Source: Escherichia coli
GTDB lineage: Bacteria; Pseudomonadota; Gammaproteobacteria; Enterobacterales; Enterobacteriaceae
Direction: 5' to 3' (one strand)
Assembly: GCF_003018115.1 (NCBI RefSeq)
Contig: NZ_CP027457.1
Length of the DNA stretch: 64,000 bases
Shown here: piece after piece, positions 22,901-28,900 of the stretch
Numbering within the stretch: the stretch's first letter is position 1
How the letters are laid out: each line of letters starts with the position of its first letter
Position numbers: made by a program

Positions 22901-25900
22901 CGGTGGTTGTCGCCCTGGGAGCTATGTTTGGCAAGATCTTACATGAAACCGGCGCAGTCGATCAGATTGCCGTCAAAATGCTCAAGTCCTTCGGTCACAG
23001 CCGCGCGCATTATGCCATCGGCCTTGCGGGGCTGGTCTGTGCGCTACCGCTGTTCTTTGAAGTGGCGATTGTTCTGCTGATTAGTGTTGCTTTCTCAATG
23101 GCGCGCCACACCGGTACGAACCTGGTGAAGCTGGTAATCCCATTATTCGCAGGCGTGGCGGCAGCGGCGGCGTTCCTGGTGCCAGGGCCAGCGCCAATGC
23201 TGCTGGCATCGCAGATGAACGCCGATTTTGGCTGGATGATCCTGATTGGCCTGTGTGCGGCAATTCCGGGAATGATTATTGCCGGGCCGCTGTGGGGTAA
23301 CTTCATCAGCCGTTACGTTGAGCTGCATATTCCTGACGACATCAGCGAGCCGCATCTCGGCGAAGGCAAAATGCCGTCCTTCGGATTCAGCCTGTCGCTG
23401 ATCCTGCTGCCGCTGGTGCTGGTGGGGCTGAAAACCATTGCCGCGCGTTTTGTGCCGGAAGGCTCTACCGCTTACGAATGGTTCGAGTTTATTGGTCATC
23501 CGTTTACCGCGATTCTGGTTGCTTGTCTGGTAGCGATTTATGGCCTGGCAATGCGTCAGGGCATGCCAAAAGACAAAGTGATGGAGATTTGCGGTCACGC
23601 GCTGCAACCGGCGGGGATCATTCTGCTGGTGATTGGTGCGGGCGGCGTGTTCAAACAGGTGCTGGTTGACTCTGGCGTAGGTCCGGCACTGGGCGAAGCG
23701 TTAACCGGCATGGGCCTGCCGATTGCTATCACCTGCTTCGTGCTGGCCGCTGCAGTGCGCATCATTCAGGGTTCTGCCACCGTTGCCTGTTTAACGGCGG
23801 TGGGACTGGTGATGCCAGTCATTGAACAACTGAACTACTCCGGTGCGCAAATGGCGGCGCTGTCGATTTGTATCGCCGGTGGTTCGATTGTTGTCAGCCA
23901 CGTTAACGACGCCGGTTTCTGGTTGTTCGGTAAATTTACCGGCGCGACCGAAGCCGAAACGCTGAAAACCTGGACCATGATGGAAACCATCCTCGGCACT
24001 GTCGGTGCCATCGTTGGGATGATTGCGTTCCAGCTGTTGAGTTAATTACTGCGACAAATTACTGCGAGCTTGCTCGCAGTAATTCATTTCTCTTTTCTCC
24101 TCTCTTCATCTTTTTGATCTCTCTCGCAAATTTACCTGCAAATAATCCGTTCTAATCACTGCCTAAAGATCGCAGGAGATAAAGATGGAAAAGCACGCAG
24201 CTGAATTGCTTTTACAGCGGATGTTAGGAAATACCACCGCTACTTTCAGGGAAGGGCAATGGGAAGCCATAGACGCGGTGGTGAACCAACGGCGAAAACT
24301 GCTGGTTGTCCAACGCACTGGCTGGGGGAAAAGTGCCGTGTACTTCATCGCCAGTAAAATCTTCCGCGATCGCGGCGCTGGCCTGACAATTATCATCTCT
24401 CCTTTGCTTGCCCTGATGCGTAACCAGGTTGCCGCCGCTGAACGGTTAGGTATTACGGCTGAAACGTTGAATTCTACAAACAGAGAAGAATGGCAGCGCA
24501 TTAGCGATAAGTTGCTGCAAGGTGAGGTCGATTGCTTGCTGGTTTCCCCGGAACGTTTGGCAAACCAGGACTTTATCGAAACGGTTTTATATCCTATAGC
24601 CGATCGTATTGGCTTGCTTGTGGTCGACGAGGCGCACTGCATCTCTGATTGGGGCCACGATTTTCGCCCGGATTACCGACGTATATTAGATATTTTGCGC
24701 CAACTACCTGCGAATACCCCTGTTCTGGGTACAACCGCGACAGCGAATAACCGTGTCGTTGAGGATATCCGTCAGCAATTGGGTGATATTGTGATTCAGC
24801 GTGGAACGCTGGCTCGCGAAAGTTTGGCGCTTGATGCCTTAGTCTTAGGTGAACAGTCATCCCGTCTGGCATGGTTAGCAACGGTTATCCCTCAGTTTTC
24901 CAAATCGGGAATTGTTTATACCCTGACTACTCGCGATGCCGAACTTGTCGCCGAGTGGTTAAGGAAAAATGGTATCAGTGCATTTGCTTACTACAGCGGT
25001 GTGACTTGTGAAGGCGCGGAAGATTCTAATACTGCCAGGGAATATCTGGAGCAGGCGTTGCTGGCAAATAAAATTAAAGTGCTGGTTGCGACAACGGCGC
25101 TGGGAATGGGCTTTGACAAACCGGATTTGGGGTTTGTTATTCATTACCAGATGCCGGGGTCTATTGTCGGTTACTATCAACAGGTGGGGCGTGCCGGGCG
25201 TGCTATAGATTCCGCAGTTGGCATATTGCTTTGTGGTGGTGAAGACCGCGCTATTCATAAATTCTTCCGTGAAAGCGCCTTTCCTGCGGAGGCGCAAATT
25301 CATGAAATACTCAACGTACTTAGCGTGAATGACGGTCTTACCTTACGAGGCATTGAACAACGGACGAATCTCCGTTATGGGCAAATAGAAAAAGCACTGA
25401 AATTATTGGTAGCTGAAAATCCATCGCCTGTGGTGTATACCGAGAAATTATGGCGCAGAACAATTGTCAGTTTTTCTCCTGACCATGAACGAATTAACCA
25501 TTTGATGAATCAGAGAAAAAGTGAGCTGGAAGACGTTGAAAGCTATATCACGACCAAGGAGTGCAAAATGCAATTTCTGCGCCGCGCACTCGATGAGCCA
25601 GGTGCCGAACGTTGTGGTAAATGTAGCAGTTGTCTTCAGCGTCCGTTGTTGTCGCCCGACATTGATAGCGGTTTACTCCATGCGGCAAATTTATTTATTA
25701 AACATGCTGACCTGCCATTAAATCTCAATAAACAGGTGGCAGCTGGGGCTTTTACGCAATACGGATTTAAAGGGAACTTGCCTGCGGGTTTACAAGGATC
25801 TACGGGGCGAATCCTTTCTCGTTGGGGAGATTCCGGGTGGGGAAAGCAGGTAGCACAAGAGAAAAAAACGGGGCGTTTCAGTGATGAGCTGGTGGAGGCA

Positions 25901-28900
25901 TGTGCGGAAATGGTTCGCCAGCGCTGGAATCCGCATCCTGAACCAACCTGGGTATGCTGCGTTCCTTCATTAAGGCACCTCGACCTGGTTCCTGATTTTG
26001 CCCGGCGACTGGCGGTGAAACTTGGCTTACCTTTTATTGATGCCATTGAAAAAGTCGTGGACAATCCACCGCAGAAAATGCAGCAAAACCGTTTTCACCA
26101 GTGTCAAAATCTCGACGGGGCGTTTGTGATTACCCCTCCTTTGATGCCAGGTCCGGCGTTGCTGGTTGACGATATCGTGGATTCTGCATGGACGCTGACA
26201 GTTCTGACAGCACTGTTACGCCAGGCAGGTTGCCCGACGGTTTATCCTCTTGCCCTTGCTTCTACCTCGGTAAAAAATTGATGAATCTTTCAGCCAATGC
26301 ACAAGCAACTCTCCTGCTAACCAGCGATTTTTCTCGCGCGGCGGCGAGTGAGTATAAACCTCTTAGTAATAGTGAATGGGGGAAGTTTGCATTATGGCTG
26401 AAGCACCAACGTATCAGTCCCGCCGATCTTCTGGTGGCGCAACCGCAAGAGAAACTTACAGGCTGGAGCGATCCGCGTATTTCTCAGGAGCGTATTCTTG
26501 GCTTGCTGGCGCGCGGTCATAGTCTGGCGTTGGCGGTAGATAAGTGGCAACGCGCCGGTTTATGGATCATAACCCGCGGAGATGCTGATTATCCCGTTCG
26601 CTTGAAAAACCGATTGCGAACGGATGCACCTCCCGTTTTATTTGGCTGCGGGAATAAAGCATTACTGCAAGCGGAAGGTATGGCGATTGTTGGCTCGCGA
26701 GATGCTCCGACTGACGATTTGCGCTATACCCAACAACTGGCAGCGAAACTGGCCCAACAGGGGATTTGCGTTATCTCTGGTGGTGCGCGAGGTATTGATG
26801 AATGTGCAATGGCGTCAGCACTGGAGGCCGGGGGAACTGCCGTTGGCGTATTAGCTGATAGCTTGTTAAAAACGAGCACGTTAGTGAAATGGCGTGAAGG
26901 GCTTATAGCAGGCAACCTGGTGTTGATTTCGCCGTTTTACCCAGAGGTACGTTTCACCGTCGGCAATGCGATGGCGCGAAATAAATATATTTATTGCCTT
27001 GCTGAAAGCGCAATGGTTGTACGTGCGGGAATGACCGGTGGAACGATAACCGGGGCGATGGAGGCATTAAAACATCAGTGGCTGCCTGTGCAGGTTAAAC
27101 CAAATCAGGATATGCAATCAGCCAATTCACGATTAGTAGAAAATGGGGCGTCATGGAGTACTGAACAGGCTGAGAATGTGACGTTCAGACTGCCAGACGT
27201 TCCTGGGCTGATGTATGACAGAGCACTCCGTAACGCTCAACCAGAACTGTTTTCGCTGCATGAAGATGACGCAAATTACGCAGTAATGCCCGCGTATACG
27301 CCTGTCGATTTTTATCAACTCTTTGTGGCGGAACTGGCGATCCTTGCAAAGGAATCGATAAGTATTGAAAGGCTGGCGTCTTGTACTGGTTTAACCATCG
27401 AACAAATTAGTGTGTGGCTGAACCGCGCAGAAGAAGAGGGAAGGGTTATCCGATTGGGCGAAGGTCATTATCAGTTCAGGTAATAAAACAGGTGCCGCGT
27501 CTGGTTGTGTGCAGCACCTGTTTGAACCTTACCCCTTCATCCACATTCGAATGCCGTCGAGGAACATCTGGGTTGCCATCATCACCAGAATCAATCCCAT
27601 CAGGCGTTCAAGTGCGTTCACCCCTTTCTCGCCCAGCAGACGTAAAAATAGCGAAGACTGTAGCAGGATGACAAAGGTGCCGCCCCAGGCCAGCAGCAGA
27701 GCAATCACCAGATGTCCCATCTGATTCGGGTACTGATGAGACAACAACATCAGCGTGGCGAGAATAGTTGGCCCGGCGACCAGCGGAATTGCCAGCGGCA
27801 CGATAAATGGCTCTTCACCTGCCGGAAGCCCGCTGCTATTTCCTGAAGCGCTGGGGAAAATCATCTTAATGGCGATCAGAAACAGAATGATGCCGCCAGA
27901 AATGGAGACGGTTTCCGCACGCAGGCTGAGAAATGCCAGAATTTTCTCACCCGCAAACAGGAACACCAGCATCACCAGGAGAGCAATAAGCAACTCTCGC
28001 ACCATGATTGCCCGCCGTCTTTTCGGTTCAGTATGTTTCAGTACGGACATGAAAATAGGTAGGTTTCCGAGCGGATCCATAATCAGGATCAATAAAACTG
28101 CTGCAGAAATGATTTCATTCATAACTCAAATTCCCTGATAATTGCCGCGGACTTTCTGCGTGCTAACAAAGCAGGATAAGTCGCATTACTGATGGCTTCG
28201 CTATCATTGATTAATTTCACTTGCGACTTTGGCTGCTTTTTGTATGGTGAAAGATGTGCCAAGAGGAGACCGGCACATTTATACAGCACACATCTTTGCA
28301 GGAAAAAACGCTTATGAAAAATGTTGGTTTTATCGGCTGGCGCGGTATGGTCGGCTCCGTTCTCATGCAACGCATGGTTGAAGAGCGCGACTTCGACGCC
28401 ATTCGCCCTGTCTTCTTTTCTACTTCTCAGCTTGGTCAGGCTGCGCCGTCTTTTGGCGGAACCACTGGCACACTTCAGGATGCCTTTGATCTGGAGGCGC
28501 TAAAGGCCCTCGATATCATTGTGACCTGTCAGGGCGGCGATTATACCAACGAAATCTATCCAAAGCTTCGTGAAAGCGGATGGCAAGGTTACTGGATTGA
28601 CGCAGCATCGTCTCTGCGCATGAAAGATGACGCCATCATCATTCTTGACCCCGTCAATCAGGACGTCATTACCGACGGATTAAATAATGGCATCAGGACT
28701 TTTGTTGGCGGTAACTGTACCGTAAGCCTGATGTTGATGTCGTTGGGTGGTTTATTCGCCAATGATCTTGTTGATTGGGTGTCCGTTGCAACCTACCAGG
28801 CCGCTTCCGGCGGTGGTGCGCGACATATGCGTGAGTTATTAACCCAGATGGGCCATCTGTATGGCCATGTGGCAGATGAACTCGCGACCCCGTCCTCTGC

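Follow-up and report, generated by a model that had tools for sequence, protein, structure and literature searches.

A 64,000-nucleotide stretch of the Escherichia coli chromosome (RefSeq assembly GCF_003018115.1, contig NZ_CP027457.1; hereafter the window) encodes RqlH, a RecQ-like helicase whose C-terminal part carries a variant of the loop with which phosphoribosyltransferases (PRTs) bind 5-phosphoribosyl-1-pyrophosphate (PRPP). The locus raises the question of whether this part is a PRT domain at all and, if so, whether its loop is a decayed remnant or a working site. Our analyses favour, with a probability of roughly 80%, the reading that the RqlH tail is the ComF-like type I PRT domain of the RqlHI/PsyrTA toxin, with a complete core and an intact, family-specific loop for PRPP or ribose 5-phosphate. 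The features concerned are as follows.

24185..26281, + strand: rqlH (psyrT), an open reading frame (ORF) of 698 residues matched by PADLOC PsyrT, TIGR00614 recQ_fam and the Pfam families DEAD, Helicase_C and RecQ_Zn_bind
25697..26278, + strand: ComF-like type I PRT module (residues 505-698), described in the literature as the RqlH genotoxic domain (residues 509-690)
25949..25981, + strand: core beta-strand and start of the pyrophosphate (PPi)-loop region, W589-V-C-C-V-P594-S595-L-R-H-L, with W589, P594 and S595 at least 96% conserved
26066..26125, + strand: ComF-like flexible-loop segment, PPQKMQQNRFHQCQNLDGAF, in which Q630, N635 and N642 are fully or almost fully conserved, aligned by hhalign to ATQHFLSARLRKRNLKNAF of GntX
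26168..26194, + strand: PRPP loop, D662-D663-I-V-D666-S667-A668-W669-T670, from conservation and alignment to the loops of PRPP synthetase and GntX
26281..27483, + strand: rqlI (psyrA), the DprA-like antitoxin partner of 400 residues, matched by PADLOC PsyrA
59317..60000, - strand: gntX (ComF family), matched by the GntX and comF models; the comparator of a first-pass annotation, outside the system

Identity of the helicase and fold of its C-terminus

RqlH is built from a RecQ-like superfamily 2 helicase (approximately residues 1-350), a linker, a RecQ-type zinc domain with four cysteines (C460, C477, C480 and C483 in the translation) and the C-terminal ComF-like PRT domain. The PADLOC PsyrT model (PDLC03928) covers residues 3-697 on positions 5-687 of its 689 (E = 0, 1062 bits), the score of 256 bits on TIGR00614 lies above the cut-off of that model, a Pfam search returned no match to an HRDC domain, and the RefSeq product name is RecQ family ATP-dependent DNA helicase. 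Because the PsyrT match is full-length, the architecture has a PRT module and no HRDC domain, and a DprA-like partner lies downstream in the same operon, the gene is rqlH/psyrT, and all features examined here agree with membership of the RqlH/PsyrT family. Judged from its sequence, it is almost certainly the same orthologue as RqlH of the extraintestinal pathogenic E. coli F11, whose rqlH-rqlI operon was the subject of Russell and Mulvey (2015; PMC4670107). The two have in common the PsyrT family, the species, the downstream DprA-like partner and the residue numbering (DIVD at 663-666), and no material difference was noted; since the loop here begins at residue 662, D663 is the second Asp of DDIVD, exactly as in F11.

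Searches with the C-domain as a single sequence were weak: Pfam Pribosyltran was matched with an i-E-value of 0.018, the best PRTase in a phmmer search of the PDB had an E-value of 0.4, and among NCBIfam models the best match was GntX (E 0.011), with TIGR01203 matching residues 155-178 of the domain. Such searches were uninformative, and clear answers came from profiles and structure only. By BLASTP, residues 506-698 share 28% identity with GntX over 76 residues (E 8e-6), and the PADLOC PsyrT model in turn picks up GntX through its C-terminal part (positions 607-684, E 2.6e-9). An alignment of 76 C-domain family sequences, which served for hhalign, the PDB profile search and AlphaFold2 (AF2) alike, aligned with GntX at a probability of 94.4% (E 8.4e-8) from the flexible loop through the PRPP loop to the last strand, and its profile retrieved PRPP synthetases from the PDB at an E-value of 5e-6, together with hypoxanthine-guanine PRTs and PurF. 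The AF2 prediction for residues 505-698 is, with high confidence, one compact domain (pLDDT 95.3, pTM 0.91). Type I PRTases and PRPP synthetases account for nearly all the PDB matches listed by Foldseek, and the top query-normalised TM-score among them (0.59) belongs to ComFC (7p0h). In this model, the RqlH C-terminus is a type I PRT fold with a central parallel beta-sheet core flanked by helices.

Individual parts of such a fold can be placed in RqlH, the PPi and flexible loops tentatively. A strand runs through model residues 85-88 in the W589-S595 region. At the level of sequence, the flexible-loop segment aligns with that of GntX, and in the PPi-loop region P594-S595 is conserved and the remainder is unlike ComF. 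The stretch LLV-DD-IV-DSAWT fits the PRPP-loop pattern of a hydrophobic strand, two acidic residues and a phosphate-binding turn ending in Thr. The first-pass annotation had proposed a ComF/GntX-like PRT fold for this helicase C-terminus, and the GntX alignments, the AF2 model and the Foldseek matches bear this out: a PRT-like fold is predicted, and the similarity to ComF rises above background. The C-terminal sequence that it quoted is found exactly in the ORF at 24185..26281, and its GntX comparator is confirmed at 59317..60000 on the minus strand. The domain that it placed from 25850 onwards is present as well, but begins about 50 residues further upstream.

The PRPP loop and the toxicity of RqlH

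Conservation was assessed on the domain taken from 136 RqlH relatives, representatives of clusters at 50% identity. The loop consensus in this set is L-L-[VI]-D-D-x-V-D-S-[R/G/A]-W-T, with D662 present in 100%, D663 in 99%, D666 in 82%, S667 in 99%, W669 in 99% and T670 in 96% of the relatives. Position 668 is Arg in 75, Gly in 48 and Ala in 6 of them; RqlH of the window has Ala, and DSGWT and DSAWT alternate in closer relatives (53-67% identity). Further near-invariant positions are W589, P594, S595, Q630, N635, N642, G682, V686 and P688. The loop is a family-specific motif under purifying selection and not one in decay, and two of its features are truly particular to the family, a Trp that is invariant at the eighth position and the tolerance of Arg at the seventh. 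In profile alignments to the PDB, the homologous ribose-5-phosphate loops read DDMIDTGGT in E. coli PRPP synthetase (Prs) and DDIIDTAGT in the Prs of Bacillus subtilis. Both of these are active enzymes, and an Asp at the fifth and an Ala at the seventh position are thus not diagnostic of decay. The 6-oxopurine PRTases, such as E. coli Hpt, probably also have D-S-G at the homologous site, in keeping with the TIGR01203 match to residues 155-178 of the domain.

The behaviour of the F11 protein bears directly on this point. Its toxicity comprises SOS induction, filamentation and growth arrest, and both growth inhibition and SOS induction disappear when residues 509-690 are deleted or when the loop is altered by the D663A or the DIVD663EVME exchange (PMC4670107). 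As toxicity is abolished by D663A and by the conservative replacement of DIVD with EVME, the loop site is functional. One might still hold that the loop is degenerate and that the domain is a dead PRT relic, kept as a structural scaffold or as a docking surface for RqlI. Two canonical residues do differ from the DDxxTTGxT of GntX and ComFC, the single-sequence Pfam match is below threshold, and the interaction with RqlI depends on the domain, as co-immunoprecipitation of RqlI with F11 RqlH is lost upon its removal and binding needs residues 510-698 (PMC4670107). We nevertheless regard such a relic as very improbable, given that most loop positions are near-invariant among the 136 relatives, which share at most 50% identity, that PF00156 is precomputed for most relatives, that the Asp and Ala at the supposedly lost positions are present in active PRPP synthetases, and that the loop exchanges cost F11 RqlH its toxicity. 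The RqlH loop, which the first-pass annotation had called degenerate and possibly non-catalytic, should not be described in this way; it is a conserved family signature inside the range of active enzymes.

For the mechanism, we favour a PRT site that would bind PRPP or a 5'-phosphoribosyl nucleotide, by analogy with ComFC and ShosT. The helicase body would carry the ligand-dependent activity of this site to DNA, which would be damaged as a consequence, and RqlI would hold RqlH in check until phage infection perturbs the complex and releases the toxin. Several observations weigh against this reading. ShosT is without transferase activity on common purines, and ComFC may be either an enzyme or a regulator according to the literature. 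By sequence comparison, RqlH has a shorter PPi loop than ComF, without the RGFNQ segment. At residue 668, most relatives carry Arg where RqlH of the window has Ala, and none of the PRTase loops seen offers an equivalent of Trp669, so that the ligand could differ from PRPP. Moreover, for one E. coli PsyrTA no protection could be detected, either in its native host or in K-12, against the phages that were tried.

A different assignment of roles would make the PRT domain a non-catalytic ligand sensor resembling PurR or PyrR, with the genotoxic activity located elsewhere in RqlH; the domain would read the levels of PRPP or nucleotides, or a phage-derived nucleotide, and switch on, for example, unregulated DNA binding or unwinding. 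The helicase-dead F11 variants K49A and D148A still lower the count of colony-forming units and show raised SOS induction and filamentation, and the K49A/D663A double mutant returns titres to the wild-type level (PMC4670107). The damage is therefore independent of motor activity and tracks the PRT site. In addition, the relatives invariably keep the acidic pair that in catalytic PRTases contacts the ribose and the metal. On these grounds the sensor is rather unlikely in our estimation. The isolated PRT domain is not toxic, and RqlI and a working helicase each restrain the toxicity of F11 RqlH (PMC4670107). The proposal of a "sensor or effector" domain in the first-pass annotation thus holds in its second half, as the PRT domain is required for the toxicity of RqlH in F11, whereas a pure sensor sits badly with the relief by D663A of the toxicity of helicase-dead mutants.

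It is also conceivable, albeit distinctly unlikely, that the PRT site recognises a target other than free PRPP, which the helicase would present to it, for example an abasic site or the 5'-phosphorylated sugar of a DNA end or nick. We entertain this because Trp669 is invariant, position 668 tolerates Arg, Gly and Ala, and the PPi loop is short. If so, the toxin would act on DNA itself, by chemical modification or by trapping, and would not drain a metabolite pool. A similar idea was put forward by Russell and Mulvey in 2015 (PMC4670107).

The rqlHI locus and its disrupted alleles

In the window, gntR-gntK-gntU are followed by rqlHI and then by yhgN-asd, and the insertion relative to K-12 can be delimited as follows.

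24046..27528, no strand: rqlHI insert of 3483 bp, replacing the 56-bp gntU-yhgN spacer of K-12

Homology to K-12 stops at the gntU stop codon (24045) and restarts at the yhgN stop codon (27529), an exact stop-to-stop replacement, and hairpins are found at both ends of the segment (24057-24084 and approximately 27487-27522). Promoter and terminator scans of the locus found no more candidates than they did in shuffled sequence. A mobile-element origin was considered and rejected, as the 3.5-kb insert contains no mobility genes; its GC content is mildly lower (approximately 0.44-0.53, vs 0.54-0.59 in gntU). The clean boundaries of the segment suggest no obvious route for its gain or loss. Of 5426 complete E. 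coli genomes, 1641-1650 (approximately 30%) carry the pair, always on the chromosome. The rqlH allele of the window is 100% identical to that of O169:H41 strains, and an allele from an otter isolate differs at 10 of 585 nucleotides in the PRT domain, with three residues changed and none of them within the motifs.

For rqlI, RefSeq places the start at ATG 26188, which gives 431 residues and makes the gene overlap rqlH by 94 nt. A start at ATG 26281, with one base in common with the rqlH stop codon TGA (26279-26281), is more likely, because the PsyrA profile match begins at Met32 of the longer ORF, that is, at this ATG, and because 400 residues agree with the published truncation series (PMC4670107). 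The product matches PADLOC PsyrA with an E-value of 1.7e-202 and ShosA more weakly (1.9e-27), and its 104 bits on TIGR00732 dprA lie under the cut-off of that model.

Disrupted rqlH alleles are frequent. A 29-bp tandem duplication immediately after P594-S595 (after codon L596; window equivalent approximately 25970-26000; L003:2476-2504) frameshifts the PRT domain upstream of the PRPP loop, and its junction occurs in 292 of the 5426 genomes, including O157:H7 strains, or approximately 18% of rqlH carriers. In strain 2010C-3347, RefSeq labels rqlH as "frameshifted; internal stop"; this gene has an earlier frameshift near codon 173, and rqlI is intact. In E. coli SJ7 (L005:2501-3060), the 3' end of rqlH is interrupted by a Mu-like prophage that encodes a helix-turn-helix protein and a Mu transposase. 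The protein now ends in ...LTALFVTR*, so that the last PRT beta-strand is lost, and rqlI is split from rqlH. If the PRT domain is toxic, alleles that lose the toxin and keep the antitoxin are to be expected.

These alleles matter for surveys as well, since tools that count defence systems may score dead PsyrTA loci as present, for example in the phylogroup E2 enrichment of a genome survey. Furthermore, the PADLOC models PDLC02869 (74 positions) and PDLC02866 (255 positions), both labelled DpdF, match the RqlH PRT domain with E-values of 1e-54 and 6e-14. They appear to be RqlH-type C-terminal fragments filed as DpdF and could lead to PsyrT fragments being wrongly called as parts of Dpd. Elsewhere in the window, an ORF of 292 residues beside bioH (60835-61713, - strand) appears ordinary; it is presumably the Rpn-family recombination-promoting nuclease rpnA/yhgA expected at this position in K-12.

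Comparison with known systems

The ComF-like tail of RqlH is already known, and its presentation as a new lead in the first-pass annotation was overtaken by the literature of 2012 and 2015. The architecture with a ComF-like PRT module was reported for RqlH of Mycobacterium smegmatis in 2012 by Ordonez, Unciuleac & Shuman, who also pointed out the presence of rqlH in non-K-12 E. coli strains (PMC3378886). The toxic domain of the E. coli protein followed in 2015, with the homology to ComF discussed explicitly (PMC4670107), and Millman et al. (2022) listed PsyrTA (= RqlHI), a PRTase toxin with a DprA-like antitoxin, as a phage-defence system whose homologues protect against phages; the names PsyrT and PsyrTA are those of Sberro 2013 and Millman 2022.

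M. smegmatis RqlH shares with the protein studied here the RecQ-like ATPase, the linker, the four-Cys zinc domain and the C-terminal ComF-like PRT module. It is a distant orthologue, whose ATPase and helicase activities do not require the PRT module (PMC3378886). Many Gram-positive carriers of rqlH are without an RqlI partner according to Russell and Mulvey (PMC4670107).

Helicobacter pylori ComFC (7p0h) was crystallised with PRPP; its loop is DDIITTGTTL, as taken from the ComFC paper because a phmmer search of the PDB with GntX failed to retrieve 7p0h, and the T165A exchange abolishes nucleotide binding. Compared with ComFC, ComF and GntX, RqlH has no ComF-type N-terminal zinc finger, as residues 505-560 hold no Cys and the zinc domain upstream of the module is of the RecQ type, its loop reads D-S-[R/G/A]-W-T in place of T-T-G-x-T, its PPi loop is the shorter one, and its PRT domain forms the toxic part of a fusion with a RecQ-like helicase. 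GntX scores 433.6 bits on NF008616 and 272.5 bits on TIGR00201 comF, both over the cut-offs, whereas the RqlH C-domain reaches 15.2 bits on NF008616 (cut-off 304) and gives no match to TIGR00201 at E <= 10 in the NCBIfam search. By its predicted structure, the domain is ComF-like, with ComFC as the closest match, yet it is not a member of the ComF family. One could suppose that RqlHI is mainly an accessory of DNA uptake or recombination, a fused ComFA-ComFC-like pair with a DprA-like partner in which the PRT domain handles single-stranded DNA (ssDNA) as ComFC does. ComFC is the nearest structure, binds ssDNA and interacts with DprA, the ComFA helicase is encoded in the same operon, and Russell and Mulvey raised this link themselves (PMC4670107). 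We find the idea quite improbable, since the zinc finger is absent and the ComF model scores are not reached, the pair acts as toxin and antitoxin (PMC4670107), PsyrTA homologues protect against phages, and the locus is an accessory one, in about 30% of genomes, whose toxin gene is often inactivated with rqlI kept.

The PRPP synthetases, represented by E. coli Prs (4s2u) and B. subtilis Prs (1dkr), are the best sequence-profile matches of the RqlH C-domain in the PDB and share with its loop the pattern D-D-x-x-D-[ST]-[GA]-x-T. In contrast to RqlH, they and the 6-oxopurine PRTases are metabolic enzymes that differ in the architecture of hood and oligomer and lack a Trp as the eighth loop residue.

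A place for RqlH within ShosT was considered and rejected, as the C-domain gives no ShosT profile match at E <= 1, and the N-terminus of RqlH is a RecQ-like helicase, in contrast to the N-terminal pyrophosphatase domain of ShosT. The kinship with ShosT-type systems that the first-pass annotation had suggested is nonetheless right. ShosTA (8zvb, 8zvd) pairs a PRT-domain toxin with a DprA-like antitoxin, as do RqlH and RqlI, and RqlI matches the ShosA model. PRPP occupies the PRT site of ShosT in two structural papers, and its D331A/D332A variant loses toxicity. Mutants in the Asp-Asp pair of the PRPP site are thus non-toxic in ShosT, as is D663A in RqlH, and the phenotype in both systems is DNA damage with filamentation.

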